From Verrucomicrobiota bacterium (lineage in GTDB: Bacteria; Verrucomicrobiota; Kiritimatiellia; CAIQIC01; JAGNIJ01): a stretch of DNA of 64,000 nucleotides. The position numbers and the translations under genes are program-made. Positions 2,410 to 61,910 of this stretch are shown here, one piece after another; the first letter of the stretch is position 1, and every line of letters begins with the position of its first letter. Location of the stretch: contig DAISJM010000002.1 in the NCBI GenBank assembly GCA_036821485.1, positions 3,771 through 67,770 on the forward strand. The letters run 5' to 3'. The notes under the pieces were generated by a model, which saw only the letters and a list, made by a program, of their open reading frames with translations, was not told where the DNA came from and searched no databases.

Positions 2410-4839
2410 TTAAACTTCCGTCTCGTCGGTCGGATTCTGCGGAATCTCTCCGTCGAGGTCGATCAGAATTTCCCGCGGATCCGAACCACACGGCGGGCCA
2501 ACAACCCCGCGCTGCTCCAACAGGTCCATCAACCGCGCCGCCCGCGTGTACCCAATCCGCAGCCGCCGCTGCAGCGACGAGGTGGACGCCCGCTTCGTCT
2601 GGCGGATAATCTCGATTGCCGAATCAAGCAGGTCATCCTCCCCCATATCGGGCAAGTCGGGGGCGTTGCTGTCCATCTTGTCCTTGATGGTGTTTTCGTA
2701 CTGCGGCTGCCCCTGCTTCTTGATGAAATCGACGATTCTCCGCATCTCCGCGTCCGTGGTCATCGTGCCCTGCGCGCGGGTCAACTTGCCGCTGCCCGGC
2801 GGCAGAAAGAGCATATCGCCCTTGCCCAGAAGCTTGTCGGCACCGTTGGCATCGAGGATCGTGCGGCTGTCCACCTTCTGCGCCACCTGGAAGGAAATAC
2901 GCGCCGGGAAGTTCGCCTTGATCGTGCCGGTGATGACATTCACCGACGGCCGTTGTGTGGCGAGGATCATGTGGATGCCCACCGCACGCGACAACTGCGC
3001 GAGCCGGGCAATCCCGGTCTCGATTTCCGCCTGCGCCACCAACATCAAGTCCGCCAGCTCGTCCACCACGATCACGATGTATGGCAGCCGGTCCGGCGGC
3101 TCATCGCTCGGCTTCTCAGCCTCGCCCGGCGCGCCCTCGAAAAGTTCGGTCTGCTTCAGAATCGGCCGGGTGTTGTAACTCTTGATGTTGCGCACACCGA
3201 CCTTCGCGAAAAGCTTGTAGCGCTTCTCCATCTCGTTGATCGCCCAGCGCAGTCCGATGCTGACCTTCTTCGGATCGGTGATGACCGGAACGACCAGGTG
3301 CGGCAGGTGGTTGTAGGTGGAGAACTCGACGATCTTCGGGTCGATCAGCATGAGGCGCAGCTCGTCAGGCGTGCGCGACATCAGCAGGCCCGTCAGGATG
3401 GAGTTCATGCAGACCGTCTTGCCGGAGCCGGTCGCACCCGCGATCAGCATGTGCGGCATCTCCGCCAGGTCCGCCACAATCTCGTGACCGCCCACGTCCT
3501 TGCCGATGGCCAGCGGCAACGCGGCCTTCCCGCTCTGCCACGTTGCGCTCTCGATGAGCTCGCGCAGGAACACCACCGTCGTCTTCGAATTCGGCACCTC
3601 GATGCCGACCACGCCCTTGCCGGGAATCGGCGCCTGCACGCGGACGCTCTCCGCCTTCATCGCCAGCGCGATGTTGTTGCCGAGCGCGACGATCTTCTCC
3701 AGCCGCACGCCCGGCGCCGGCAAGAGCTCGTACCGCGTAACCACGGGGCCGCGCTCGACATTCGTCACGTCGACCTCGATACCGAACTCTGCAAAAGTCT
3801 CCTTCAGCACCACCGCACTGGCTTGGAAATCGCCGCGAATTTCCCGGTCCTTTTCAGGCGGTAACGGGTCCAGCATGGAGACGGGCGGCAGTTTGAAGGC
3901 AGAATTGGTCTGGCTGAAGAGGGGCTCCGGGTTGACGGGTTCCGGCGCGCGGACCGGCTTCGGACGTTCCTTCTTCGGCGGAGGCGGCAACTCCTCGACC
4001 TCTTCCTCCACCTCGGGAATCTCCGGCTCGGGCACCGCTCGCGCACCCCGTCCGGGCGTGATGATAACCGCCGGCCGAATGGCGGGTTTTTGCACAGCCG
4101 CCTCGCGCTCAGCCTTCTCCTGCTCTTGCTCGCGCATGACGTCTTCCAAACGCCGGCGCTGCTTCTCAACCTTGCGCTGCTCCCGCTCAATCTGCGACCG
4201 TTCATCGCGGTGCTCCGCGATCTTCTCATCCACCTTCTTAAACAGCGCCACGGCCAGCACCCCAATCGCGTGCGCAATCTGGAGAGGATGAATCTCGATG
4301 AAAAGAATCAGGCTGATCGCCAACAACGACGCCGCGATAATGCCCGTGCCCACCGTACCCAGCCACCGCACCAGCATTTCATCGGTCAGAAAGGACCCCA
4401 CCACACCACCCGGCCCGCAGGTGTTAAGCTTCTCCACAACCCCTTCCCACGCACCGGGTTGTAAATCGAAGATACAAAGCAGCGCCAAGAGCATCACGGT
4501 CAGCCAAACCGCCTTCGGCCAAACGCGCCCCTCGCGTTTGAAAATGAGGAGCAGGCCGATGATCATCAGCCCCGCCGGCAACAGATAGGCCCCAATGCCG
4601 AGGGCCATGAAGAAGAAGAAGGCAGTCCACGCGCCCACAGGACCGATGAAATTCTCGGCAGGCCGGTTTGGCGGCGATTTCAGCAGGGGAATATCGCCCG
4701 GTGCATAGGAAAACAGGCTGAGAAGAAACAGGAGGGCCACCGTCACCAGCAAAATGCCCCAAGCCTCCCGCCACCCGGTTCTAGCTATTTCCTTCCTTAC
4801 CGCCATGGCCGTACAAAATAGCAGTACCCCACGCCTCAA
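2410..4839 (-). CDS. ftsK: DNA translocase FtsK (FtsK/SpoIIIE family)
   Basis: 809 aa; N-terminal polytopic membrane domain, Pro/Glu-rich linker, ATPase core with Walker A GATGSGKT, and a C-terminal gamma winged-helix ...[29 protein letters not shown]. Confidence 0.96.
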   Translation of the reverse strand: [809 protein letters not shown]

Positions 4840-4940: not shown

Positions 4941-5228
4941 TTACCCGAAGGACGGAGCTGTGGCAGTCGTCCACAGGAATCCGCCTGATGGATTGATGCA
5001 TGAGAAGTAGATGAGGAAGGACCGCAGGAGGCTGACATCGGTGATGGCCATGTACTCATCCAAGTTCCCCGCCGCATCGTAGGAACAGAGGACCTTTGAC
5101 TCACCGCCGTAGTCGGCCTGCACCAACCGGTATTGAGCGTCGTAGCTATACTTGACCGTTGTCCCCGCCTCCGCGGCAAGAACACAACCTAGCAGCACGA
5201 TCCCCACTAACCACCAACGCTTGTTCAT
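4941..5228 (-). pseudogene. signal-peptide plus YD-repeat N-terminal fragment (RHS/YD family gene remnant)
   Basis: MNKRWWLVGIVLLGCVLAAEA (signal peptide) followed by two YD repeats (YSYDAQYRL..., SYDAAGNL), then unrelated low-complexity sequence and a stop after about 95 aa. Far too short for an intact YD-repeat protein. The upstream in-frame extension to 5360 is unlikely to be coding. Confidence 0.5.
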
Positions 5229-5310
5229 GAACCCCCCTTCGCAAGCTTCATGCTTCTCTTTTTTTTGCAGGCTAACTTCGCCTATTCGACATCCAAGGAC
5301 CGCCCCCGCA

Positions 5311-5883
5311 CTAGAGAGGGATGCAAAAGGGTATGAAGTGCCGGTACTTCTTTTCTTCAAACTTCAACGTCTTCTTCTCCCCCCAACATGACAGCTCTAC
5401 CTCAAGTCTCCCGTCCCGGACTACACCACCCTCAAGCCTCACTGACAATATTGTGCCGCGGAAGATCTCTGTCTCTTGAACGGATGACGGAGCGACAGCA
5501 GCCCCATCAATCTTTTCAAAGATGACATCTCCCAGCCCACCGGAATGCACAAGCTTGAGGATATTCGTTTCGTGAGGGGGATACAGAGCCTTATCGGTCA
5601 TCGGCACAATCGGTATGAAAGCAGGCCCCACCCAACTCATACGATCAGCCAGAACAGGATACACCACAACCTCATTGGTTGTCCCCATAACGAATTCATA
5701 TAGAGGAGGCTTATACTGCCCAAATGAGGGCTCTCTGCTGCGAGTATGCCACCCCCCTTTTTCCACCACATGAAAGCCATCCTCTAAATGCACAAGCGTC
5801 AGGTAATCGGCCGAATCCACGACAGAACACCCGCCCACCAAGCAAACCAGTACACAGGCCGCAGCCAGAACGAGTCTATTCAT
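5311..5883 (-). CDS. hypothetical lipoprotein
   Basis: MNRLVLAAACVLVCLVGGCS has a lipobox LVGGC; about 190 aa with no recognisable domain. The apparent upstream extension in the ORF track is encoded by the transposon inverted repeat and is rejected. Confidence 0.6.
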   Translation of the reverse strand: MNRLVLAAACVLVCLVGGCSVVDSADYLTLVHLEDGFHVVEKGGWHTRSREPSFGQYKPPLYEFVMGTTNEVVVYPVLADRMSWVGPAFIPIVPMTDKALYPPHETNILKLVHSGGLGDVIFEKIDGAAVAPSSVQETEIFRGTILSVRLEGGVVRDGRLEVELSCWGEKKTLKFEEKKYRHFIPFCIPL

Positions 5884-5905
5884 CACCACCACCCTGACAC
5901 CCTTT

Positions 5906-5931
5906 GGGGTCAGACCTACAAATAACAAATA
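5906..5931. repeat. left terminal inverted repeat of the transposase element
   Basis: Exact reverse complement of 6988-7013. Confidence 0.85.
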
Positions 5932-5934
5932 GGC

Positions 5935-6945
5935 TCATTCCAGCACCCCGAGGCTTCTCTCCGCCTGCTCCAACTTCCGCCGCAGCCCCTTGTCTGTCTT
6001 GACCAGCCGATCCGTTCGCCTCACCTGCCAACTGACCGCCGATCCCCACTGGAGCCCCAGCTCCCGCGCCACCTCCCGTTGCGTCAACCCGCTATGCCGA
6101 CTCAGCAACAGCGCCGCCAGCCCCCGCGCGCCCTGCCCCCTGCTCCGACAGCCAATCTCCTCGACAGGCACCCCCATCACCTGCGACACCGTCTTCAGGA
6201 CTCTCCTCGGCGCCACCGCCACCACCTGCCTTCGAAACGTCGTATCCTCCGGCCTCTTCAACCTGCCAACCTGTTCCGCCCCCACCTCCCGCATTCTCTC
6301 CATGAATCCCTCTCCGCCGATCCCCTCACTCGCCCCCTTCACCAACTTCTGGACTTCCTCGTCCGTCTTTGCCAACCCCTGTTCCACATACTTCCGGTAC
6401 GCCGAAGGCCTCCGCCCTTTCTGCCCCGCCAACTGTGCCAGCACCGGCCCCATCTCCAATCCCTCAATCGCCCTTGCCCTCCCCGCATAGGCCGGGTAGC
6501 TGCTCCAGCGATAGCCCCGCAAATACCGAACCTGCTCTTTTAGCGGCCTTTTCTCGATCTCCCCGACATGCACCGGGTTCAAGTGTACATACCGGCTCAG
6601 TTTCAGCAGGTACTCATCCCCCTCCACCGGCTTTCCCCCAAACCGACCCTGCAACAGATGTCCCACCCGCCGGTGCCTCTTGTTGAAGTACATCGTATAC
6701 GCCGTCATCAGCGACTGCATGAATCGGCTGATATTGGCCCCCGGTGTCTCCACCAGCAGATGCACGTGATTGTTCATCAGGCAGTACAGGTACAGCCTCA
6801 CCCCGTGCTTCCCTGCCTGCTCGCTCAACTGATCTAGGAACCGCCCACGATCCCCGTCATCCCGAAAGATATCCTGCCTCCCGTTCCCCCGAACGGTCAC
6901 GTGGTAGATCGCCCCCTCGAACACAATCCTTAGTTTTCTCGCCAT
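5935..6945 (-). CDS. IS200-like HUH (Y1) transposase fused to a DnaA C-terminal-like HTH domain
   Basis: 336 aa; the HUH motif is NHVHLLV; the catalytic Tyr helix AYTMYFNKRHRRVGHLLQGRF fits the IS200/RayT pattern; the C-terminal ~90 aa (SQVMGVPVEEIGCRSRGQGARGLAALLLSRHSGLTQREVARELG) resembles DnaA domain IV. Confidence 0.85.
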   Translation of the reverse strand: MARKLRIVFEGAIYHVTVRGNGRQDIFRDDGDRGRFLDQLSEQAGKHGVRLYLYCLMNNHVHLLVETPGANISRFMQSLMTAYTMYFNKRHRRVGHLLQGRFGGKPVEGDEYLLKLSRYVHLNPVHVGEIEKRPLKEQVRYLRGYRWSSYPAYAGRARAIEGLEMGPVLAQLAGQKGRRPSAYRKYVEQGLAKTDEEVQKLVKGASEGIGGEGFMERMREVGAEQVGRLKRPEDTTFRRQVVAVAPRRVLKTVSQVMGVPVEEIGCRSRGQGARGLAALLLSRHSGLTQREVARELGLQWGSAVSWQVRRTDRLVKTDKGLRRKLEQAERSLGVLE

Positions 6946-6986
6946 ACCCGCCTTCCTACCACCCCTTGCCCTCTCCGTCCACCCTC

Positions 6987-7466
6987 TTATTTGTTATTTG
7001 TAGGTCTGACCCCGGAAAGATCGGAAAGATTGCTTGCAGATCTACTCCCAAAGCTACTGAGTATCAGGCGCCCAAGGGAGGTCATCGTGGCCCACCCAAC
7101 ACCAAGAATGAAAATATTGCTGACAGCAGCATTCACGTAATCGAACACGTTGAAGTTCACAAAATCCTTGCTGTTCACCGGATTGGCAAGGAGAGCTAGA
7201 AGGCATAGCGGAGGAAAGCCCAGGAAAAGAACAAGCCCTGTTACGGCACCGACCGCGCGCTGTGCGAATGATGCAACTCTGAGAGAACAGAATATGAACA
7301 CGAGTCCCGACAACGCGGCGAAGTACAGGAAAACGGGATATCCTTCGGCAAAGAAGAACCCGATCGCGTTCTCTCTTTGGCTTTGCAGCGGGATGCTGGC
7401 AACGACGGAGATAGACGCCACACAACACACAATCGCAGAACCCAGTCTTAGCCTTTCAGTACTCAT
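6987..7466 (-). CDS. small 4-TM membrane protein, candidate RHS immunity protein; 3' end modified by the transposon insertion
   Basis: Starts 10 nt after the stop of the RHS C-terminal gene on the same strand. Four predicted TM helices. The final codons GVRPTNNK and the stop are encoded by the right inverted repeat. Confidence 0.55.
   Translation of the reverse strand: MSTERLRLGSAIVCCVASISVVASIPLQSQRENAIGFFFAEGYPVFLYFAALSGLVFIFCSLRVASFAQRAVGAVTGLVLFLGFPPLCLLALLANPVNSKDFVNFNVFDYVNAAVSNIFILGVGWATMTSLGRLILSSFGSRSASNLSDLSGVRPTNNK
6988..7013. repeat. right terminal inverted repeat of the transposase element
   Basis: Exact reverse complement of 5906-5931; it overlaps the last 8 codons and stop of the upstream 4-TM ORF. 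Confidence 0.85.
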
Positions 7467-7475
7467 CTCAGCACT

Positions 7476-8903
7476 CTATGGGAAGGAAGCCCGAATCACG
7501 GTGTTGGCGCTCGAAGTTGAGGATACGGAACCCCTCGATCCACGGGCTCCAATCGATATTGCTCCGCCATTCACTGGCGCGAGAAACACGCTGCGGGATA
7601 TTTCATTGGGGGTCGTCTGGGAGTCATGAACAATGGGCACCCCCGCAGCACGCAGACCGTCCGCCACAAGAGAACCACAGGTATACTCACTGCCATCAGA
7701 GGACTGAATACCGACTATCGCACCATAGTCATACCCGCCGAAGGTGCCTCCAACAAGAGCCTGCCCCGCAAATTTAAGAAGCCCAGCTTCATCAACCGCG
7801 CCGTTTGGTCGCATGATTTGGAATGTCTTCCCGTCCAGACTGTCCGGGGCATCAATAACAACACCGTCGCCAGGACGAGCCGTTAGAATACCATCCTGCA
7901 CCCTAATGCCAACATGCCCATACACATCTCCGGGAGTATTTGCATCTGCAGTGAAAATAGCGATGATCCACTGAATGATATTGTTATCGACATAGAGATA
8001 CACATCCCCAACCCGTCCCTGCGCCCAACTCTCCCCCCACCCCCACGGGTCGATGAAGTTCACCGGATCGCCGTGGCAGTAGGCGTACAGATTCAACCCG
8101 CCCGGAAGGCCAATCGGATCTTTCGTGAGCCACCGTCTCAGGTCCGCCGCGTAGTACCGCGCTTTGATGTAGTACAGCGACCCACCCTCGTGATACGCCC
8201 CATACCCGCCCCCGAACGTATACGGCGTCTCCACCCCGCCTGCCTGATCCAGCACTTCTCCGTACGGCGAATAGGCGTACTCCGCCACCACCGCCCCGTT
8301 GGTGTCCGTCAGCGCCAGCGTCGACCCCTGCTCATCCGCGTGGAAGTAGTACACCGCTCCGTTTGTTTCCACCTGCGCCAGCAGCCCCCGCGCGCCCCAG
8401 ATGTAGTACCGCACCGGCAGCCCGTTCGTGTCCGCCTCCATCAGCACGTTGTGCAGCGCCGCGCCACGATCCAGCACGAAATGCCGGGTGCCTTGCAGGG
8501 AATGCCGGGTCACCCGATCCCCCAACCCGTCGTATTCATAGGCGCTGGCCGTTCCCTCGTTCACCACGTTCGTCATCCGATTGTCGTGGTCGTATCCCAT
8601 CGCCAGCCCCATCCCGTTGGAGACCAGGTTCCCATTCGGATCGAAGTAGAAGGCGTTGGTCGTCCACGCCTCATCACCCGGGGCCGCAACACGAAGCGTC
8701 TGCGAAAGCCGATCGGCCCCGTCGAAGGTCATGCACTCCACCTTCGGCTGCAGGTCCCCCACCCGCCCCGCCACGATCTCCTCTTCCATCTTAAGCCCCA
8801 GCCCGTCCCGCGTAAATACCCGTTCCAGAAATGCCGTGGCACCGAGAATATAGGAGAATCCCGCCAGCCTCTGTGTATCGTCCCATTCAAACACCCCGGC
8901 CAC
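7476..8903 (-). CDS. 5'-truncated RHS/YD-repeat protein (orphan C-terminal fragment) with a variable C-terminal toxin domain, possibly a permuted papain-fold (LRAT / NlpC-P60-like) enzyme
   Basis: Multiple YD repeats (YEYDGLGDRV, YYFHADEQGSTLALTD, YAYSPYGEV). RHS core end RYYAADLRRWLTKDPIGLPGGLNLYAYCHGDPVNFIDPWG (DPxGL-type). A ~190-aa C-terminal extension with GDVYGHVGIRVQDG (like the LRAT His box) and YTCGSLV (like the NlpC/P60 YDCSGLV Cys box). The ORF opens with GTG directly after an in-frame TAA, so the N-terminal ~1000 aa of a normal RHS protein are missing. Confidence 0.8.
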   Translation of the reverse strand: MAGVFEWDDTQRLAGFSYILGATAFLERVFTRDGLGLKMEEEIVAGRVGDLQPKVECMTFDGADRLSQTLRVAAPGDEAWTTNAFYFDPNGNLVSNGMGLAMGYDHDNRMTNVVNEGTASAYEYDGLGDRVTRHSLQGTRHFVLDRGAALHNVLMEADTNGLPVRYYIWGARGLLAQVETNGAVYYFHADEQGSTLALTDTNGAVVAEYAYSPYGEVLDQAGGVETPYTFGGGYGAYHEGGSLYYIKARYYAADLRRWLTKDPIGLPGGLNLYAYCHGDPVNFIDPWGWGESWAQGRVGDVYLYVDNNIIQWIIAIFTADANTPGDVYGHVGIRVQDGILTARPGDGVVIDAPDSLDGKTFQIMRPNGAVDEAGLLKFAGQALVGGTFGGYDYGAIVGIQSSDGSEYTCGSLVADGLRAAGVPIVHDSQTTPNEISRSVFLAPVNGGAISIGARGSRGSVSSTSSANTVIRASFP

Positions 8904-13554: not shown

Positions 13555-13667
13555 GACGCCCTGTCAGTACCACATCCGGCACGCCAAGGTGAAGCCAAGG
13601 TTACGGCTCCAAACGCGAACTTTGTCGCTTGAGCCTGCCGGATTTACCCCCTATTCTACGCGCATTC

Positions 13668-14546
13668 ATGACGACTCCGATCATAGCTTTTGCAAATCAA
13701 AAGGGCGGCGTGGGCAAGACCACCACGGTCGTCAGCCTGGCCGCGTGCCTCGCCGAACGGCGCAAGAGGATACTCCTCGTCGACCTCGACCCGCAGGCCA
13801 ATGCCACCAGCGGCCTCGGCATGGAGAAGGTCGAGGGCCAAAGCATCTACCACGCACTCCTCGGCGAGAGCCCCGCGGAACCTCTCATCAAGTCCACCGC
13901 CATGGAGCGGCTCGACATCATCGGCTCGGAAGTCGATCTCGCCGGCGCGGAAGTGGATATCGCCCGCTCCGACCGATATCTGCATCGCTTCAAGGAAACG
14001 ATCACTCCTGTCGCCGACAGCGGCCGCTACGATTACATCTTCGTCGACTGCCCGCCCTCGCTGGGCATCCTGACCATGAACGCATTGACCGCCGCCGAGT
14101 CCATCATCATCCCTCTGCAGTGCGAATACTTCGCGCTCGAGGGCCTGAGCGTGATCACCCGACTCGCCGAGCGGCTGCGCGACAGCGGCGCCAACCCCGG
14201 GCTGCGCGTGGAAGGCATTGCGATGACGATGTACGACATGCGGACGAACCTCTCCCAGCAGGTCGTTCAGGAAGTGGTCTCCCATTTCGGCAATCTCGTC
14301 TACGAAACGCTCATCCCACGCAGCGTGCGCCTCAGCGAAGCACCGAGTTTCGGCAAGCCCATCATCCTCTACGACCGCAACTGCACCGGGTCCGCAGCCT
14401 ATCGCCAACTCGCCCGCGAATTTCTCGACCGTCGACGCATGGGAATCCCGGGCATGCCGGAAGAAGAAATCGTCGAGGAAGAATCCGAGCCCGTTGAGGA
14501 ACAGCCGGCAGAATCGCCGGCCGAAGACCAGCCGCCGGCGCAATAG
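13668..14546 (+). CDS. parA: ParA/Soj-family partition ATPase (orphan, no adjacent parB) with acidic C-terminal tail
   Basis: MTTPIIAFANQKGGVGKTTTVVSLAA... has the deviant Walker A KGGVGKTT. Soj-like throughout. The C-terminus is EEEIVEEESEPVEEQPAESPAEDQPPAQ. The alternative upstream ATG at 13629 is less likely. Confidence 0.85.
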   Translation: MTTPIIAFANQKGGVGKTTTVVSLAACLAERRKRILLVDLDPQANATSGLGMEKVEGQSIYHALLGESPAEPLIKSTAMERLDIIGSEVDLAGAEVDIARSDRYLHRFKETITPVADSGRYDYIFVDCPPSLGILTMNALTAAESIIIPLQCEYFALEGLSVITRLAERLRDSGANPGLRVEGIAMTMYDMRTNLSQQVVQEVVSHFGNLVYETLIPRSVRLSEAPSFGKPIILYDRNCTGSAAYRQLAREFLDRRRMGIPGMPEEEIVEEESEPVEEQPAESPAEDQPPAQ

Positions 14547-14566: not shown

Positions 14567-14647
14567 TTTTCCAATGATTGGAAAAATGGCATTCAGATTT
14601 TCCAACCCTTGGAAAAACAGCGACAGAATTTTCCAAGGGTTGGAAAA
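14567..14647. promoter_or_regulatory. three tandem copies of the 19-bp palindrome TTTTCCAA-N3-TTGGAAAA at 31-bp phasing
   Basis: 14567-14585 TTTTCCAATGATTGGAAAA; 14598-14616 TTTTCCAACCCTTGGAAAA; 14629-14647 TTTTCCAAGGGTTGGAAAA, which is the exact reverse complement of copy 2. They lie in the convergent gap between the parA stop (14546) and the def stop (14648). Confidence 0.6.
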
Positions 14648-15208
14648 TCAGCCCGTCTCGAGCGCCTCGCGCGTTTCCTTCTTCAGCCGCTTGAGTTGAC
14701 CGGACAACGCGATGCGCTTGATGCGCGACATGCGGTCCACGAGAAGCACGCCGTTGAGATGATCGATTTCGTGTTGCGCCACGCGGGCCACGAATTTCTT
14801 CAACCGCAGTTCCTGCGGCTTGCCTTTGAGATCCAGAAATTGAACCGTCACTTCGACCGACCGCGACACCGGCGCATATATATCGGGGAAGCTCAGGCAC
14901 CCCTCGTCGGCCACTTCCTTCTCGCCTGAAAAATCGGTGATCTTCGGATTGACCAGCACCAGCGGCATCGTCACGCCCGGATTGAGTACAACCCCATCTT
15001 CGGAACGATCCATCTCCAGCGGCACTTCGATGACGCAAATCGCGTCGGTACTTCCCACCTGCTGGGCAGCCAACCCGACTCCCCGCTCGAGCCGCATGGT
15101 CTCGATCATATCCTTCGCCAGCGTGCGAATGTTGTCGTCCACCTCGCGAACCGGGACCGCCGGCTCTCGAAGGACCTCGTCGCCATACGTATGGATAGCC
15201 TTCTTCAA
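14648..15208 (-). CDS. def: peptide deformylase
   Basis: 186 aa with the conserved motifs GVGLAAQQVG, EGCLSFP and QHEIDHLNG. Confidence 0.95.
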   Translation of the reverse strand: MKKAIHTYGDEVLREPAVPVREVDDNIRTLAKDMIETMRLERGVGLAAQQVGSTDAICVIEVPLEMDRSEDGVVLNPGVTMPLVLVNPKITDFSGEKEVADEGCLSFPDIYAPVSRSVEVTVQFLDLKGKPQELRLKKFVARVAQHEIDHLNGVLLVDRMSRIKRIALSGQLKRLKKETREALETG

Positions 15209-28115: not shown

Positions 28116-29879
28116 ATGACTCCGGCGCCTGTCTCACATTCCACACGATGGCCATGGGTGGCAGCCGCCCTCACTGCAGCATTCGGGTTCTCCATCACTA
28201 CTGTCCTTTGGAGAGCACGTATCCACCTGGAGGATACAACTGCCACCGACGAGTTCCGCGCAGAAGCCGACAGCTTGCACCAGCGAGTGAATCGCGAAGT
28301 TCGTCTCTTCACCGACGTCTTGGATTCCATCCGCGATTTGCACAGTATCTCCACGCGCATCACACCCGATGAACTCGAGGAGTTTGTCGGCAAGGGCATG
28401 CTTCACCAGAAGGAAATCCTCGGCTCGTTCGGATTCGCCCAACGGATCGCGCGCGATGTGCGAGGCGCTTTCGAGGCCTCTTCGACGGAGGCTGTCGGCG
28501 CAGGACCGAAGATTGTCGAACAGGATGCCGAGGACTCCTTCCGCCCAGCAGGCGACAGACCCGAATATTATCCGCTCACCTATCAGACACCATCGAACGG
28601 CTTATCCCTGCCCATTGGTTTCGATTTTGGCTCGCGTGCCGACGATCGCGCCGCCATCCAGCACATGCTGGACACTGGGCTCTTCTCACAGGGACATCGC
28701 TTTGCAGCGAACGATCGCTTCGTCGGTGTGTACGTCTTCGCCCCTATCATCTCTCCTGCGGATAACACACCTCCGCCCCCACGGCTCTACATGGCCGGTT
28801 TCGCGGTCGCAATCTTCCAGCCATCACTGATTCTCGACCGCGCTGCAACTGGATTGAATGTTCCCCATTTTCGCGCCGAGTTTGCTGAACCACCCCCCAC
28901 CTTCCATGCATCCACTCCCGTCGTAACAACCATCGGCTCTCCTTCCACAGCCCTTCGATTTGAGGCGCCGGTACGGGTGGCTGATCATACGTGGCTACTC
29001 CGTTGCGAAGCGGGTCCCGAATACCTGCTCGCCAAGCGGTCTGGGCAACCGCTCCTTCTACTGGTCGGCGGCAGCGTCATCACCGTGCTGCTGGCCACGC
29101 TTCTCTTCACACTCGTCAGTCGTACGCGCCGCACGGAGAAGATTGTCCAAACGCGCACCGCTGCCCTGCGCGAGGCCCACGAACACCTCCGCCGGGAAAT
29201 GGCGGAGCGCGGCCGGCTTGAGCATGAACTCCTGGAAATCAGCGAGCGCGAACAGCACCGCGTAGGCCGCGACCTCCATGATTCGCTCGGCCAGAAACTT
29301 ACCGGTGCCGTCTATCTCAGCCGCGCCCTGCTCAGCCAACTGGCCGACGCCGGCGACGAGACCCGCGAAAGCGCGGAGAAGATCAACGGCATTCTCAAGG
29401 ACGCTGTCACACAGGTCCGACGCATTGCGCGCGGCCTTGCCCCCGTCGAACTCGAGGAGGGCGGCCTCGCCTACGCGCTGCGCAAGCTGGCCGAGGAAGC
29501 GCGCGAACTCTATAACGTGTCGTGTGAGTTCACCTCCTCCAACCTCCGCCTCCCCGGCAAGACATCGCTGCACCTCTACCACATCACCCAGGAGGCGATC
29601 CACAATGCCGTCCGCCACGGAGGCGCCACGCACATCCGCATCGGCCTCAGCGAAGCCGGCGGCAACGGTGTGCTTACGGTCGAGGACGATGGCCGCGGCA
29701 TCCCCGATGCGGCGGAGCGGAAGAGCGGCATGGGCCTCCACATCATGGGCTACCGGGCCGAGTCCATCGGCGGAACGTTCGACGTGAGGCGGAAGAGCGA
29801 TCGAGGGACCGTGTTGACATGTCGGTTCAGAATTGGCAACCAATCAGGTGCCGGCGGCACGCCGAGCAAGGACACGTGA
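28116..29879 (+). CDS. sensor histidine kinase, NarX/DesK-type (HisKA_3) with a periplasmic CHASE-like sensor domain
   Basis: Two TM segments bracket a ~270-aa extracytoplasmic domain. HisKA_3 box EREQHRVGRDLHDSLGQ; HATPase_c motifs (HNAVRHGGA, VEDDGRGIP, GMGL). Confidence 0.85.
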   Translation: MTPAPVSHSTRWPWVAAALTAAFGFSITTVLWRARIHLEDTTATDEFRAEADSLHQRVNREVRLFTDVLDSIRDLHSISTRITPDELEEFVGKGMLHQKEILGSFGFAQRIARDVRGAFEASSTEAVGAGPKIVEQDAEDSFRPAGDRPEYYPLTYQTPSNGLSLPIGFDFGSRADDRAAIQHMLDTGLFSQGHRFAANDRFVGVYVFAPIISPADNTPPPPRLYMAGFAVAIFQPSLILDRAATGLNVPHFRAEFAEPPPTFHASTPVVTTIGSPSTALRFEAPVRVADHTWLLRCEAGPEYLLAKRSGQPLLLLVGGSVITVLLATLLFTLVSRTRRTEKIVQTRTAALREAHEHLRREMAERGRLEHELLEISEREQHRVGRDLHDSLGQKLTGAVYLSRALLSQLADAGDETRESAEKINGILKDAVTQVRRIARGLAPVELEEGGLAYALRKLAEEARELYNVSCEFTSSNLRLPGKTSLHLYHITQEAIHNAVRHGGATHIRIGLSEAGGNGVLTVEDDGRGIPDAAERKSGMGLHIMGYRAESIGGTFDVRRKSDRGTVLTCRFRIGNQSGAGGTPSKDT

Positions 29880-29886
29880 CCATCGT

Positions 29887-30570
29887 ATGAAGAAAACCGA
29901 CTCACATGACAATCGGAAGGCGCGCATCCTGGTGATCGACGATCACTCCGTCGTCCGTCACGGCCTGGCTGCCCTGCTCGCCGGAGAAAAGGATATGACC
30001 ATCTGCGGCGAGGCGGCTACCTACGAAGAAGGACTCGCCGCTGCGCTGGAACTGCGGCCCGACATGATGCTGGTCGATATCGTACTCAAGGACCGCAGCG
30101 GCCTGGATCTGATCCGCGACGCGCGCGAGAAGGGTTTCGAAGGCTATTCGCTTGTACTCTCCATGCACGACGAGACCACGCACGCGGAGAAGGCGCTACG
30201 CGCCGGCGCGCAGGGCTACGTGATGAAGGAAAACGCCGACGAGGTCATCGTGGGAGCCATCCGCGAGGTGCTGCGCGGCGAACTCTATTTCAGTGAGCGT
30301 GCCTCGGAACAAATTCTGCGGCAAATGATCGAGAACCCGCCGGGCGAAACGCCGGAGCATGGCGTGGAGAGCCTGACCGCGCGCGAAAAGGAAGTTTTCG
30401 TTTGCATCGGCGAAGGTCTATCCACAAAGAAGATCGCGGAGAAACTCGAATTGAGCGCGCGGACCGTGGAAGTGCACCGCGCACACATCAAGCACAAGCT
30501 GCAGTGCGAAGATGCGGCACAGGTGTTCCGCGAGGCCGTACGCTGGGTCGAACAGCAGGCCGGGAATTGA
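29887..30570 (+). CDS. response regulator, NarL/FixJ (LuxR-type HTH) family
   Basis: REC domain (ILVIDDHSVVRHGL...D...K) plus a C-terminal LuxR HTH (LTAREKEVFVCIGEGLSTKKIAEKLELSARTVEVHRAHIKHKL). Confidence 0.9.
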   Translation: MKKTDSHDNRKARILVIDDHSVVRHGLAALLAGEKDMTICGEAATYEEGLAAALELRPDMMLVDIVLKDRSGLDLIRDAREKGFEGYSLVLSMHDETTHAEKALRAGAQGYVMKENADEVIVGAIREVLRGELYFSERASEQILRQMIENPPGETPEHGVESLTAREKEVFVCIGEGLSTKKIAEKLELSARTVEVHRAHIKHKLQCEDAAQVFREAVRWVEQQAGN

Positions 30571-30577
30571 TGTCCAT

Positions 30578-31243
30578 ATGAACCCGATTATCCTCAAGTC
30601 GCTATTGATCCTCGCCGCCTATCTCCTGGGCGCCGTCCCAATCGGGCTGCTGCTCGCACGCATGAAAGGCGTGGACATCCGTACCGTGGGCAGCGGCAAT
30701 ATCGGTGCAACCAATGTATTCCGATCCGTCAGCAAAGGATTGGGCATCCTGACGTTCGTGGGTGACGCCGTGAAGGGCTTTGTGCCAGCGTTCGTTTTTC
30801 CAATCCTTGGAAAATACCTCTTCGGAACTCTCCAAGGTTCGGAAATCGGCATCCTGTGCGGGTTCGCCGCCATCGCCGGACACAACTGGCCCGTCTTCCT
30901 TCGCTTCAAGGGCGGCAAAGGCATCGCCACCAGCGCCGGAGTACTGCTTGGCATCGCTCCTGCCGCCGTCGGCATCGGTCTCGCTGCGTGGATACTCCTC
31001 TTTGTCATCAGCCGGTATGTGTCCGTGGCGTCCATCGGCGCTGCCCTTGCCGTGCCAGCCGCATCGTGGATCATGTATCTCCCCCGGGGGCTTTTGCTCC
31101 CCTCTGTCCTGACCCTGCTGGGCTTGATCGCCGTGTGGCGTCACAAATCCAACATCCAGCGGCTCCTCAACGGCACCGAGCATCGGTTCCAGTTTGGGAA
31201 GAAGCCCAACGAAAGCACATCTGGATCAACACATCAGAACTGA
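30578..31243 (+). CDS. plsY: glycerol-3-phosphate acyltransferase PlsY
   Basis: MNPIILKSLLILAAYLLGAVPIG...GSGNIGATNV...GHNWPVFLRFKGGKGIATSAG. Confidence 0.9.
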   Translation: MNPIILKSLLILAAYLLGAVPIGLLLARMKGVDIRTVGSGNIGATNVFRSVSKGLGILTFVGDAVKGFVPAFVFPILGKYLFGTLQGSEIGILCGFAAIAGHNWPVFLRFKGGKGIATSAGVLLGIAPAAVGIGLAAWILLFVISRYVSVASIGAALAVPAASWIMYLPRGLLLPSVLTLLGLIAVWRHKSNIQRLLNGTEHRFQFGKKPNESTSGSTHQN

Positions 31244-31256
31244 TCATTGGAGCTCT

Positions 31257-32249
31257 ATGAATATATCCATCATCGGTGACGGAGGTTGGGGTACAGCCCT
31301 GGCCATGGTACTCCACGAGAATCAACATGCGGTCCGCATCTGGGGTCCCTTCGAGGAATACATCGACCAGATCCGGCGCACCGGCGAGAACACCAAGTTC
31401 CTTCCCGGCGTCAAGTTGCCGCACGGTCTACGCTGGACCTCCGACCGCCGTGAGGCCACGGCATCTGCCGATATCGTGGTCTTCGCCGTCCCATCGCGAT
31501 TCTTCCGCGCGGTGGTGAAGTCGTTTGCGGCCGACATCCCCAAGACCTGCCCCGTCGTTAGCGTGACCAAGGGTCTCGACAAGGATACCTGTCATCGCAT
31601 GACCGACGTTGCCGCCGAACTGCTCGGCCGCGGCCCCATCGCCGCGCTCTCCGGACCCAGCCACGCGGAGGAGGTTGCCCGCGGCGTACCCACGGCCGTG
31701 ACGATCGCCTGTGAGGACCACGGCGTTGCAGAGCAGCTTCAGAAGGCCTTCATGCAACCGGCGTTTCGTGTGTACACGTCGGACGACGTGATCGGTGCCG
31801 AATTGGGTGGCGCGTTGAAGAACGTCGTCGCCATCGCTGCCGGCGTGTGCGACGGCATCGGCTTCGGCGACAACACGAAGGCCGCCCTGATGACGCGCGG
31901 CCTTGCAGAAATCGGCCGGCTCGGCTGTGCACTTGGCGCGCATCCCGCCACCTTCGCCGGCCTGAGCGGCATGGGCGATCTTGTCGTTACCTGCTTCAGC
32001 CGCCACAGCCGCAATCGCGCCGTGGGCGAACGGCTCGGGCGCGGCGAGCCGATCCAGAAGATTCTCGACAGCATGGAGCAGGTGGCCGAGGGCGTGTGGA
32101 CCTGCGCCACGGCCCGCGCGTTGGCGGCGCAACAGAACATCCCCGTGCCGATCACAGACGAGGTGTATGGGGTGATCTACGAGGGCAAGGATCCGCGGGC
32201 AGCCGTGCAGGCGCTGATGACGCGCGACCCGCGGCCCGAAAGGGATTAG
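31257..32249 (+). CDS. gpsA: NAD(P)H-dependent glycerol-3-phosphate dehydrogenase
   Basis: MNISIIGDGGWGTALAMVL...; GpsA motifs throughout; directly downstream of plsY. Confidence 0.92.
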   Translation: MNISIIGDGGWGTALAMVLHENQHAVRIWGPFEEYIDQIRRTGENTKFLPGVKLPHGLRWTSDRREATASADIVVFAVPSRFFRAVVKSFAADIPKTCPVVSVTKGLDKDTCHRMTDVAAELLGRGPIAALSGPSHAEEVARGVPTAVTIACEDHGVAEQLQKAFMQPAFRVYTSDDVIGAELGGALKNVVAIAAGVCDGIGFGDNTKAALMTRGLAEIGRLGCALGAHPATFAGLSGMGDLVVTCFSRHSRNRAVGERLGRGEPIQKILDSMEQVAEGVWTCATARALAAQQNIPVPITDEVYGVIYEGKDPRAAVQALMTRDPRPERD

Positions 32250-57600: not shown

Positions 57601-58146
57601 TCAGACGTTACCAATATTGTCTGCGTCGAGTGCGGCATCGGATACGGCATTGGCCGCATCGGGCTGACCTTGGCCGGCCAGGGAAATCACAACGCATTTC
57701 TGGCCGTGCTCGTCAGGCACCCCCGACTGTGTTTGCACCGCCGTATTCTCTCTGAGCGCCTGGTGAATAACGCGCCGGTCAGAAGCCCCCATCGGCGGCA
57801 GCGTCACTGCGCGGCCTGTTTCCCGTACTTCTTCCGCTGCTTCCAGCGCCTGTTGCACAAGGCGATCCTTTTTCCGCTGGCGGTAGCGCTCGATATCCAC
57901 AACACAATGCGGAGCGGCCTCAACCTGCCGCAGCATCATCCGGTTCAACAATAGTTGGAGAGCGTCCAGCACCTGCGCGCCACGCCCAATCAGACGCGCG
58001 GCATCCGGGGATTCGATTTGCAGAAGGATTTCGTCCTCCTGAACGCCGGCTTCAATCTTGCCCTCGAAACCGATCTGGCGAAGCAGCTCGCCAAGCACCT
58101 CGGCGGCTTTTTCTTTCGCCTTGTCCACGGATCCCTGCTCACTCAT
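57601..58146 (-). CDS. jag: Jag/KhpB-like RNA-binding protein (KH + R3H domains)
   Basis: KH-like LLQIESPDAARLIGRGAQVLDALQ and R3H LPPMGASDRRVIHQAL; directly downstream of yidC. Confidence 0.8.
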   Translation of the reverse strand: MSEQGSVDKAKEKAAEVLGELLRQIGFEGKIEAGVQEDEILLQIESPDAARLIGRGAQVLDALQLLLNRMMLRQVEAAPHCVVDIERYRQRKKDRLVQQALEAAEEVRETGRAVTLPPMGASDRRVIHQALRENTAVQTQSGVPDEHGQKCVVISLAGQGQPDAANAVSDAALDADNIGNV

Positions 58147-58174
58147 GGCAGCCCCCGTCGTTGCGCGCCGGACA

Positions 58175-59947
58175 TCAGGCTCCGGCTGCTTTCTTCTTCC
58201 GATGCATCATCAATTGCTGTGCAATCATCAGGCACTGGTTCGTCGTCCAGTAAAGCGCCAGGCCCGCCGCAAAGTTGTAGAAAATCACCAGCATCATCAC
58301 CGGCATGACCATCATCATCTTCTGCTGGCTGGCATCGCCGGCCGAAGGCGTCAGCTTCTGCTGCCAGACCATCGTCACCGCCATGATGATCGGCAAGATG
58401 TTCAACGGAATCGGCAGCAGACCCGCCAACAGATTCTCCGGCTGGCTCAAATCGCGCACCCACAGGAACGGCGCGAAACGCAGTTCGATCGCGCTCCGCA
58501 GCACGACAAACAGGGCAATAAACACCGGGATCTGAATCAGCGTCGGCAAGCAGCCGCCCAGCGGGTTGACCTTGTGCTCCTTGTAGAGCGCCATGATCTC
58601 CTGCTGCTGCTTCTGGGCATTGTCTTTGTATTTTTCACGCACCGCGGCCACGAGAGGCTGAATCTCCGACATCTTCTTCATGCTCTCGGTGCTCTTGCGC
58701 GTGATCGGCCAGAAGACAACGCGAATGATGATCGTCAGCAGCATGATCGCCACGCCGTAGTTCCGGAACACCCTGTGCAGCGCATTGAGCGTCGCCAGCA
58801 GCACCTTGCCGACCGGCGCCCACATCCCGAATTCCATCACATCCACAAACCGCTGCCCATACCGGTTCAGCTCCGAGTACTTCTTCGGCCCCACGTAGTA
58901 TTCCATCGGCAGCGTGAACGTCGTGCCCGGCTCTACGTTGAACTCCGGCAGCAGGATGCGGGAGGAGACTTCCTTGACGACCGCAGTCTTCACGCGCGCA
59001 GCCGGATTGGCCATTTCCTGCGGCGAGACATCGCGCACAGCGTGGATGACACTGTTCTCGCCGCCATTCTCGGGGGCAAGAATCTGAACGAAATACTTGT
59101 TCTTCGCCGCCGCCCAGTGCACGGGCTTCGCGAGCGACCAGTCCAACGTGACCGGCGGCTTCGCCAGATTGCGCTCCTTGCGCTCCACATCAAACTGCTT
59201 CACCAGTTTGTTGCCCCAGTACTTCACACCCTCGCCTCCCGGCGAAAGGGTGTCCACGCCGAGGAACGCGATGCCCCGCACGGAACCATCACCCACCAGG
59301 CTCTGCATCATGCCCGTCTGGATAAATCGTGCGGGCAGGCGAACGGCCGCGGCTGACTCGTTGGCCATTTCGTCCGTAACCTTCGCCATGTAGCGATCAT
59401 CCAGGCTGATCGTGCGGACAAACTTGAGCCCGTCGGGCGTGGCCCGCTCGAAGCGGACCGACCGGCCATCTTCCGCCACCGTCATGGCGAACTGCTGCCG
59501 CGCGCTCAGCCCAGCCCAATCCACATAGGCCAAGGCGGGCACACCGTCAAAATCCAACACCAATGGGCCACTGTCCGGGTCCACCGTCTGGCGATAGTCC
59601 CGCTCCTTGAACTCAACTGATTTCACCGATGCGCCGCGCGAAGAAACGGTAAGCTTGATCGCCTCATTCTCCAGCACCGCGGTCTCTTCCGGCAGAGCGT
59701 CTTCTTCCGGTTCAGCCTCCACCTTGGCCGGAGCGGCTTCGGTGGTCTCGTCAGCAAGCAGCGTCGCCGGCGCCTCGCCCAACGCGGCATCAGTCACCGC
59801 GCCCGGAACGTCCGATGCAGGCTCCGCAGCGGCTGGAACCGCACTGTCATGGAAGAAGTATTTCTTGATGACCTGACGGTCGATGATGGGCCATGCCAGC
59901 CAAAGAGCGAACAAGGCTACGAGTATGATGATGTCTTGTTTCTTCAT
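58175..59947 (-). CDS. yidC: membrane protein insertase YidC
   Basis: 590 aa; N-terminal TM, large periplasmic domain, and conserved C-terminal five-TM YidC/Oxa1 core (...GCLPTLIQIPVFIALF...). Confidence 0.93.
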   Translation of the reverse strand: MKKQDIIILVALFALWLAWPIIDRQVIKKYFFHDSAVPAAAEPASDVPGAVTDAALGEAPATLLADETTEAAPAKVEAEPEEDALPEETAVLENEAIKLTVSSRGASVKSVEFKERDYRQTVDPDSGPLVLDFDGVPALAYVDWAGLSARQQFAMTVAEDGRSVRFERATPDGLKFVRTISLDDRYMAKVTDEMANESAAAVRLPARFIQTGMMQSLVGDGSVRGIAFLGVDTLSPGGEGVKYWGNKLVKQFDVERKERNLAKPPVTLDWSLAKPVHWAAAKNKYFVQILAPENGGENSVIHAVRDVSPQEMANPAARVKTAVVKEVSSRILLPEFNVEPGTTFTLPMEYYVGPKKYSELNRYGQRFVDVMEFGMWAPVGKVLLATLNALHRVFRNYGVAIMLLTIIIRVVFWPITRKSTESMKKMSEIQPLVAAVREKYKDNAQKQQQEIMALYKEHKVNPLGGCLPTLIQIPVFIALFVVLRSAIELRFAPFLWVRDLSQPENLLAGLLPIPLNILPIIMAVTMVWQQKLTPSAGDASQQKMMMVMPVMMLVIFYNFAAGLALYWTTNQCLMIAQQLMMHRKKKAAGA

Positions 59948-59953
59948 AATAAA

Positions 59954-60172
59954 TCACTTTCCTGCCGGAACAGGATCCAAGCCACCCGGATGAAATGGAT
60001 GGCAGCGCAGCAGTCTCCGCACACCCAACCAGAGACCGCGCAGAAACCCATGTTTCTCAAGCGCCTCGATCCAGTAGGCTGAACACGAGGGATAGAATCG
60101 GCAACACTGACCAACAAACCGTGAAAGGGTCAACTGGTAGAGACGAATCAACGCTATAAGCAATCTCGTCAT
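59954..60172 (-). CDS. yidD: membrane protein insertion efficiency factor YidD
   Basis: [35 protein letters not shown]. Confidence 0.9.
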
Positions 60173-60573
60173 TCCCGCCGCTCTCCCTGCGCGCCCGACT
60201 CCAGCAGCCCGGCAAACTTCGCCAACTCCAGAAGCTCGCCCTCGATGTCATTCCACGGCGCCGCAAGAATGTCGCGGCGCGCCACAATGACCACATCGAA
60301 CGGGCCCGCCATCCGAAAGCGATTGCGCCGGTAGGCCTCCCGAAGGAGCCGCTTGGCCCGGGCACGGGCGACGGCGTTTCCGACCTTCTTGCTCGCAACA
60401 ACGCCCAGCCGCAGCGAAGCGTCATCCCCCGAGCGCAACCACAGGACCATGAAACGGCCGATCCAGCGGCGACCTTGGGCGTAGGTCTGGCGGAACAACG
60501 CCGTTCGAGTCAGACGCTGGCTTCGCCTCAAGCCCTGATCGGGCTTCGCGCCTTCCCCGCTGCCCCCCGCCAT
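60169..60573 (-). CDS. rnpA: ribonuclease P protein component
   Basis: [22 protein letters not shown]...[23 protein letters not shown]; 4-nt overlap with yidD. The true start may lie inside the annotated ATG. Confidence 0.85.
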
Positions 60574-61815: not shown

Positions 61816-61864
61816 ACTCCCGGGTTTGCGGTATATTTCCAATGCTTGGAAAAAAGGAGGCGGG
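61816..61864. promoter_or_regulatory. two copies of the TTTCCAA-N3-TTGGAAAA palindrome at 30-bp spacing in a divergent promoter region
   Basis: 61816-61834 TTTCCAATGCTTGGAAAA; 61846-61864 TTTTCCAACCATTGGAAAA; these end ~45 bp upstream of the ATG at 61911. Confidence 0.6.
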
Positions 61865-61910
61865 GTTTTCCAACCATTGGAAAATCCGTCGCCCACGGCA
61901 GCAGGTGACT

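Follow-up and report, generated by a model that had tools for sequence, protein, structure and literature searches.

Several described systems distribute short, repeated DNA sequences along bacterial chromosomes. The highly iterated palindrome HIP1 of cyanobacteria (GCGATCGC) is over-represented throughout its lineage and kept in coding sequences against codon preference; its function and its reader are uncertain. Phased operator arrays are known for NrdR, with boxes 31-32 bp apart, for Lrp, with sites approximately 30-32 bp apart, and for BvgA, with dimers 22 bp apart. ParB-family proteins bind dispersed and often intragenic palindromes such as parS, the Noc target ATTTCCCGGGAAAT and the operator of KorB, TTTAGCSGCTAAA, whereas uptake sequences are oriented and non-palindromic. 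Here, we analyzed a 64-kb stretch of DNA from a Verrucomicrobiota bacterium of the class Kiritimatiellia (GCA_036821485.1, contig DAISJM010000002.1, positions 3,771 to 67,770), referred to in its entirety as the window, in which the acyltransferase gene plsY contains a 19-bp palindrome, TTTTCCAATCCTTGGAAAA, at positions 30796-30814 of the + strand. We found that this palindrome belongs to a genome-wide, class-wide family of Kiritimatiellia that is not confined to the window, that its plsY copy is in all probability constrained at the level of DNA, and that the family probably consists of phased protein-binding sites.

The initial annotation had described the plsY palindrome as the sixth copy of a motif and had read its codons as FPILGK. 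Both statements were confirmed, as the site is an exact match to the pattern TTTTCCAA-N3-TTGGAAAA (that is, TTTTCCAANNNTTGGAAAA) and a true family member, and its codons (G|TT TTT CCA ATC CTT GGA AAA) read V-FPILGK. Allowing up to two mismatches, the pattern was found six times in the window, starting at 14567, 14598, 14629, 30796, 61835 (one mismatch) and 61866, against 0.01 matches expected from dinucleotide-preserving shuffles; the match is thus as unexpected by chance as had been claimed. In addition, all six TTGGAAAA octamers of this 61% G+C window sit in palindrome sites, with 0.28 octamers expected. The five copies outside plsY form two arrays, both with a spacing of exactly 31 bp. One occupies most of the 101-bp gap between the convergent genes parA (13629-14546) and def (14648-15208), its first base lying 20 nt past the parA stop codon and its last base directly before the def stop codon. 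Its copies 2 and 3 (14598-14647) are exact reverse complements of one another, including their spacers (CCC and GGG), and a 21-bp hairpin or cruciform between them is possible (-43.5 kcal/mol). The other array lies between two divergently oriented genes, one for a methyltransferase and one for a TGS and uridine-kinase-like protein. Finally, plsY itself contains a second, decayed site 32 bp downstream of site 1, which the initial annotation had overlooked, as it had the arrangement of the other copies in 31-bp arrays.

To compare plsY at the DNA level, we used nine relatives whose PlsY proteins are 65-91% identical to that of the window; a metagenome scan for plsY relatives gave mostly distant PlsY genes, L125 being the one close match. 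Site 1 was retained with at most one mismatch in all nine relatives and was written with rare codons (frequencies in the codon usage of the window: TTT, 0.28; CCA, 0.08; CTT, 0.11; GGA, 0.13; AAA, 0.18; GTT, 0.10). FPILGK-like peptides are common to most PlsY homologues of at least 70% identity, and the relatives read FPILGK, FPILGQ, FPILVK, FPMFGK, FPIIGK, FPMLGK or FPMIGK. The changes from IL to MF, II, ML or MI map to the codon positions of the 3-nt spacer, and three relatives carry one arm mismatch each, two of which are replacements (K to Q and G to V). Given the peptide and the codon usage of the window, the probability of obtaining the arms is 6.4e-6. Furthermore, among the 91 invariant degenerate amino-acid columns of the nine aligned genes, 10 use one codon throughout, and the three rare-codon cases among those 10 (F74 TTT, P75 CCA and E89 GAA) all fall within the palindromes. 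In L211, L209 and L207, site 2 lies exactly 32 bp downstream of site 1 with 0-2 mismatches, and its different reading frame gives FQ-x-LE-N/I; in L125, it has three mismatches. Since rare synonymous codons are frozen, amino-acid changes fall mainly in the spacer and the second copy is read in another frame, the constraint acts on DNA and not on protein, and we consider it highly probable that the plsY site is a member of the palindrome family under DNA-level constraint. The nucleotide comparison thus indicates a site kept by selection, or by a drive, acting on the nucleotides themselves.

PlsY genes of 57% identity or less lacked the motif, and no family member was found in 362 kb of sequence around plsY in other bacteria. 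Therefore, the plsY site is lineage-specific, a point that the initial annotation had proposed to examine by aligning orthologues. The same annotation held that conservation of FPILGK and its codons across distant homologues would speak for protein-level constraint; conservation was indeed observed in the relatives, but the rare codons, the spacer changes and the other-frame copy contradict the conclusion drawn from it. Its description of the encoded segment as a poorly conserved loop was broadly right: when aligned with the Aquifex PlsY structure (5XJ5), FPIL occupies a four-residue gap that separates catalytic motifs 2 and 3, and site 1 sits between transmembrane segments. Compared with Aquifex PlsY, the segment has 4 + 2 additional residues; loop length varies continuously across homologues, and no insert boundaries were seen. 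Spread by insertion, which had also been proposed, is unlikely for the plsY copy. Indeed, an origin in place is likelier because the FP codons reused by the left arm are widespread in motif-less homologues. Elements like those of Rickettsia (Rickettsia palindromic elements) are discrete in-frame inserts that bring in a peptide segment not present in homologues. The earlier interpretation is partly supported, in that DNA-level maintenance and lineage specificity hold.

When species-representative genomes were scanned for exact matches to the pattern, at least 120 loci were obtained, on many contigs per genome. Among the matches listed, these were overwhelmingly from Kiritimatiellia and included Pontiella sulfatireligans, Pontiellaceae, Tichowtungia and many metagenome-assembled genomes labelled Kiritimatiellae, Lentisphaerae or Verrucomicrobia. 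Within 0.9 Mb of family loci we counted 161 exact copies and 76, 68 and 80 copies with one, two and three mismatches, respectively, for expected numbers of 0, 0.002, 0.06 and 1. The 19-bp consensus, (T)TTTTCCAA-[T/G]-[G/C]-[A/C]-TTGGAAAA(A), is a perfect palindrome without a conserved flank, and its 16 arm bases are identical across Kiritimatiellia genera. Arm variability is highest at the outermost T/A and innermost A/T and lowest at TTCC/GGAA. At the dyad, 156 of the 161 exact sites have G or C; the flanking spacer bases favour T/G and A/C, and the preferred spacer differs by genome (T[C/G]A or G[C/G]C). Five relatives have no copy other than the plsY site within 10 kb on either side of it. 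The plsY copy is an ordinary though unusually well conserved family member, and no oddity of plsY. Full-text and literature searches for the motif and for palindromes or inverted repeats of Kiritimatiellia returned nothing relevant, and the family is apparently undescribed so far.

Site placement was assessed from crude, unverified ORF (open reading frame) calls with over-extended 5' ends, a stricter definition being used for the deep-intragenic class. Intergenic sites were found in convergent (18), divergent (17) and tandem (51) gaps. Another 60 sites lie within 240 nt of the longest possible start of an ORF, the majority probably upstream of the true start, and 48 sites (approximately 22%) lie deep within ORFs, in all three frames and often as pairs 31 or 32 bp apart. 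Approximately 19% of the clusters facing the 3' end of a gene start 0-4 nt past its stop codon. The flanking genes have no common function and include those for sulfatases, glycoside hydrolases, DnaJ, PstS, PurM, MreC, RuvA, a P-type ATPase and large adhesin-like proteins. A regulon or an autoregulated regulator was rejected: when 219 flanking ORFs were clustered, and the 5'-adjacent genes and the genes at the largest arrays were scanned with Pfam, nothing emerged except sulfatases, which are an abundant family, and housekeeping genes without a relation to one another. A coherent regulon is absent. We also observed a palindrome copy before each of three tandem sulfatase paralogues in L009 (3698, 5211 and 6718), where the sites punctuate gene junctions.

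Helical phasing and independence of the half-sites characterize the family. All spacings between neighbours of up to 140 bp lie within 1.5 bp of multiples of 10.5 bp, with 31 bp (76 cases), 32 bp (27), 22 bp (11) and 30 bp (4) joined by spacings of 42, 53, 63, 74, 125/126 and 136/137 bp, and clusters contain one to six sites. Within a site, the centres of the core half-sites TTCCA...TGGAA are 10 bp, i.e. one helical turn, apart. Watson-Crick-compensated double mismatches were as frequent (7) as expected from independent half-sites (7.2). Furthermore, C (85 sites) and G (71 sites) at the centre were not biased towards either strand relative to transcription, which would be the behaviour of a G:C pair at the dyad of a duplex and not that of a loop base in RNA. 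Uncompensated mismatches, an unbiased dyad G/C, helical spacing and a weak hairpin together favour recognition of duplex DNA by a dimer.

The explanation that we favour, and consider probable from the comparative data, is that the family represents phased binding sites for a conserved dimeric DNA-binding protein. A protein would most likely be the reader, and its binding would most likely be cooperative. Each monomer would recognize one TTTCCA half-site, with a single helical turn between the two half-sites, and adjacent dimers would line up along one helix face at a distance of two or three turns and cooperate. The plsY palindrome would then be a vertically inherited member of the class-wide 19-bp family. 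In an ancestor of the lineage, plsY would have acquired, within the codons for a variable protein segment, a two-site array with a 32-bp spacing. Since then, selection on DNA would have fixed the arms, forcing rare codons and confining peptide change mainly to the spacer; in the lineage of the window, only the first site is still intact. At plsY itself, the site may contribute to nucleoid architecture, act as a roadblock or control the downstream gene gpsA; the initial annotation had proposed a roadblock or a modulation of read-through into gpsA, and nothing in this sequence analysis shows either. We would advance only tentatively the more specific proposal that the reader could be a so far unrecognised, class-specific, global DNA-binding protein of Kiritimatiellia, nucleoid-organising or silencer-like, occupying high-affinity 19-bp sites chromosome-wide on one helix face in a two- or three-turn register. 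Under that proposal, selection on the sites would be strong enough to override codon choice, and even amino acids, in essential genes such as plsY over long evolutionary times.

Several observations weigh against phased binding by a dimer. Convergent gaps are as site-rich as divergent ones, and density ranges more than five-fold between genomes, from 6 sites per 64 kb in the window to 12 per 20 kb in L211 (DP16D_bin.41); a nucleoid protein or a drive-maintained repeat would fit both observations better than a classical regulator. No DNA-binding family recurred beside the sites in scans of the flanking genes, which did not identify the binder. Identical or reverse-complement spacers were shared by 54% of neighbouring pairs versus 27% of distant pairs of the same locus, and recent tandem duplication of 31- or 62-bp units has given rise to some arrays, so that the 31-bp period could in part reflect inheritance and not selection. 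Finally, a finer test found a small excess of compensated changes at the innermost pair only (three AG/CT changes for approximately 0.3 expected), which leaves some room for hairpin or cruciform effects.

Many other arrays have unrelated 12-bp spacers and the same period. Taken with the spacer sharing and the tandem duplications, this indicates that arrays grow by local duplication, after which the palindromes and their register stay while the spacers drift. Array positions can also be followed between genomes: the parA-def gap contains three (window), two, one and one copies in four syntenic genomes, with the remainder of the gap unconserved, and a homologue of the TGS-kinase gene in L076 is likewise preceded by two sites just upstream.

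According to a first alternative, the palindrome is a drive-maintained or selfish dispersed repeat (REP-like and mobilised by a transposase, uptake-type, or subject to templated correction or gene conversion), and its plsY copy persists through the drive and not through any effect of binding at that position. Such a drive would explain the spacer sharing between neighbours and is further suggested by the very high and variable density of sites, their presence in every intergenic type and in all three frames of ORFs, array growth by tandem duplication, the excess of compensated inner-arm changes and the occurrence of Y1 transposase genes in these genomes. Moreover, the two plsY palindromes carry identical spacers in L125 (332-382, TGT/TGT) and in L207 (10207-10257, TCA/TCA) despite their different frames. 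As identical spacers are read there in different frames, the amino-acid changes are concerted, which suggests conversion between neighbouring copies within the coding sequence of L125 and L207. However, a drive leaves the positional stability in orthologous coding and non-coding DNA unexplained, and strict helical phasing would not be expected of it. The class-wide identity of the 16 arm bases is unlike the species specificity of repetitive extragenic palindromes (REPs), and the orientation and lack of symmetry of uptake sequences are unlike the palindrome. Overall, we regard maintenance by a drive as unlikely.

A genuine gene for a REP-associated tyrosine transposase (RAYT) in the relative L213 (981-1559, NF047646, 122.9 bits) is flanked by REP doublets (1003-1089 and 1580-1639) of the TGTAGCCGCGG type, which are GC-rich, have a canonical GTAG foot and form a second repeat family unrelated to the AT-rich palindrome; a REP/RAYT system was therefore rejected. 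The window contains a complete Y1 element that fits the TIRYT class described in PMC6006769. Its gene (5938-6945, 336 aa) encodes a Y1 transposase domain similar to that of RAYTs and, at the C terminus, a weak helix-turn-helix resembling DnaA domain IV. The palindrome half-site resembles a DnaA box, but this transposase was rejected as the reader because it belongs to a mobile element with its own 26-bp terminal inverted repeats. No palindrome flanks the element in the window, and no Y1 homologue was found near the sites. Homologues of the transposase gene are mostly on contigs of 1.1-1.7 kb, suggesting that the element has many copies per genome. The element is inserted in a low-GC stretch (0.57) at 4941-8903 that encodes Rhs/YD-repeat core proteins.

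A hairpin in RNA or single-stranded DNA, serving as a stabiliser of mRNA 3' ends, a processing site or a translation-pause element, was the second alternative, which would make the plsY copy an RNA structure within the gene. The palindrome folds alike in either orientation, and a single site folds better than its shuffles (-5.9 kcal/mol, z = -2.9). The onset of about a fifth of the 3'-facing clusters just past stop codons, the stable two-copy hairpin of the parA-def gap and the few compensated inner-arm changes would also be consistent with a structured transcript. In contrast, all 16 arm bases are conserved in sequence, beyond mere pairing, and compensated changes show no overall excess. The unbiased central G/C is a property of duplex DNA, and the spacings match the helical repeat of B-DNA. 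The weak, AU-rich stem precedes A residues instead of a U-tract, for which reason an intrinsic terminator was rejected; the terminator scan did not call the plsY site, and no Rfam match at the gathering score was found throughout the 64-kb window. A hairpin function thus appears improbable.

We also considered whether the plsY sites could be operators of the NarL/FixJ-type regulator encoded upstream, tuning plsY or gpsA by a roadblock or by control of an internal promoter. The order CHASE kinase-regulator-plsY-gpsA is kept in eight genomes, including most relatives, and the recognition helix of the regulator (RTVEVHRAHIK-KL) is invariant at an overall regulator identity of 60-67%. Dimers of the LuxR/NarL type are known to commonly bind palindromes of approximately 20 bp, the BvgA heptads (TTTCCTA) resemble the half-site, and the plsY site stands alone within its surroundings in the five relatives mentioned above. 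On the other hand, an invariant recognition helix is normal in any orthologous regulator, the kinase-regulator operon of the window has no palindrome site upstream of it, and no sigma-70-like promoter was predicted near the plsY site. Since the motif occurs genome-wide, beside unrelated genes hundreds of times, and L211 keeps both plsY sites without two-component genes upstream, a purely local operator for this regulator is very unlikely. Lastly, constraint on the FPILGK peptide or on a rare-codon pause for membrane insertion, with a chance match to the palindrome, would agree with the retention of FPILGK-like peptides in many relatives and with a location between transmembrane segments, where such pauses are plausible, but is effectively refuted by arms that stay within one mismatch while the peptide varies mostly at the spacer, by the low probability of these arms given the peptide, by a second copy that matches the same genome-wide motif in another frame and by the negligible chance expectation in the window.

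Other identities were tested and rejected. Origin-proximal parS-like sites do not agree with the lack of a GC-skew switch in the window and with the presence of sites on many contigs per genome, and no parB-like gene was found among the annotated genes of the window. Negative GC skew throughout its length places the window on a single replichore, with any origin to its right. We noted in the window an rnpA-yidD-yidC-jag/KhpB-like cluster (57604-60573) of a kind that is typically origin-proximal, as well as ftsK (2413-4839) and rmuC. The parA gene (13629-14546) is Soj-like, codes for an acidic C-terminal tail and has no adjoining parB; the usual place of parB is taken by the three-copy palindrome array, followed by the convergent def gene, an arrangement kept in three relatives. 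A viral origin or a self-marker shared with phages was rejected because approximately 100 viral hits were chance-like AT-rich singletons with an unbiased central base. Separately, two GC-rich IMG/VR contigs, L267 (3427-3507) and L320 (10587-10636), contain 31-bp-phased palindrome arrays and may be prophages of Kiritimatiellia or host fragments. A clustered regularly interspaced short palindromic repeat (CRISPR) array was rejected in view of the 19-bp repeats, 12-bp spacers, one to six units, hundreds of singletons and intragenic copies; CRISPR repeats measure 23-47 bp and their unique spacers 21-72 bp, mostly in many units and with cas genes close by.

The coordinates of the palindrome sites, of the genes around plsY and of the mobile element are given in Table 1. 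The start position of gpsA is that of the public gene call in L002.

Table 1. Palindrome sites, plsY neighbourhood and mobile element of the 64-kb window.
Feature	Coordinates	Strand	Details
Palindrome site 1 in plsY	30796..30814	.	TTTTCCAA-TCC-TTGGAAAA, read (V)FPILGK
Decayed site 2 in plsY	30828..30846	.	CTCTCCAAGGTTCGGAAAT, 4 mismatches, other-frame reading LQGSEI
parA-def array	14567..14647	.	Three exact copies, 31-bp spacing
Methyltransferase/TGS-kinase pair	61835..61884	.	Copies with 1 and 0 mismatches, 31-bp spacing
plsY, glycerol-3-phosphate acyltransferase	30578..31243	+	Pfam PF02660 G3P_acyltransf, E=3e-53; 5XJ5 match, E=7.5e-41
gpsA, NAD-dependent glycerol-3-phosphate dehydrogenase	31257..32249	+	Directly 3' of plsY; Pfam
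CHASE histidine kinase	28116-29879	+	Upstream of response regulator gene
NarL/FixJ-type response regulator	29887-30570	+	Directly 5' of plsY
TIRYT-type mobile element	5906-7013		Complete; perfect 26-bp terminal inverted repeats GGGGTCAGACCTACAAATAACAAATA, start GGGGTCAG

The closest named homologues of the PlsY protein of the window are from Kiritimatiellia, and an identical protein is encoded in GCA_964523715.1 and in JGI metagenomes (uncultured bacterium). In L328 (2743-2746) and L327 (2791-2794), the regulator gene overlaps the start of plsY by 4 nt, an overlap suggestive of one operon that comprises the two-component genes, plsY and gpsA in that lineage. A small gene lies between plsY and gpsA in L207 (10661-11035), L209 (10671-10811) and L211 (10699-11061); it belongs to the PDDEXK_3 or 23S_rRNA_IVP four-helix-bundle family and is absent from the window.

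If phased binding by a dimeric protein is correct, the plsY site would offer a clean natural case of dual coding, documented by comparative sequence analysis, in which coding nucleotides are held by a second function at the DNA level. The family would constitute an undescribed genome-wide sequence system in a poorly studied phylum of the Planctomycetes-Verrucomicrobia-Chlamydiae (PVC) group, which has the cultured members Pontiella, Tichowtungia and Kiritimatiella. Its sharpness, with 16 fixed bases and strict phasing, would make the motif usable as bait for the reader, as a taxonomic binning marker or as a probe of chromosome organisation.

Compared with known systems, the family resembles the REPs and bacterial interspersed mosaic elements (BIMEs) that accompany RAYTs in Enterobacteria and Pseudomonas in being made of short palindromes that occur in hundreds of copies, mainly between genes, often directly past stop codons and often clustered at fixed spacing. 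However, REPs are imperfect palindromes with a GTAG-type foot that are extragenic, species-specific and located beside their own RAYT gene, whereas the family is a perfect AT-rich palindrome conserved class-wide, with about a fifth of its copies within ORFs. It shares with HIP1 a lineage-wide palindrome kept within coding sequences, but HIP1 is 8 bp long, is not known to form helically phased arrays and is linked to DNA methylation, in contrast with 19 bp, 16 fixed bases and a 31/32/22-bp phasing. Like the DNA uptake sequences (DUS) of Neisseria and the uptake signal sequences (USS) of Pasteurellaceae, it has approximately one copy per 1-10 kb and a family- or class-wide distribution, and it is tolerated by coding regions in several frames where particular peptides are imposed; DUS and USS are not known to be helically phased, whereas the family is both palindromic and phased.

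The arrays of Lrp/AsnC, NrdR, Fis and BvgA are similar in consisting of palindromic dimer sites on one face of DNA, two or three turns apart. These systems have defined regulons or degenerate sites, whereas the family has near-perfect sites and no regulon, and also occupies convergent gaps and the interior of genes; no Lrp-, NrdR- or Fis-type gene was linked to the sites in Pfam scans of the flanking genes. A likeness to the sites of ParB-family proteins is found in the one palindrome array that directly follows an orphan parA, and the TTTCC-type half-site of Noc and the central G/C of KorB appear to resemble those of the family. Their geometry (7-0-7 or 6-1-6) nevertheless differs from that of the family (8-3-8), whose copy number is far higher. 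More broadly, the sites of nucleoid proteins, whether Noc/ParB/SlmA-like or Lrp/Fis-like, share with the family a large number of dispersed, partly intragenic positions independent of gene function and, to judge from the spacing, in phase. Despite these partial likenesses, the family departs in each defining feature tested from REP/BIME elements, HIP1, uptake sequences and phased operators, and can be regarded as a lineage-wide iterated palindrome or a putative protein-site family.

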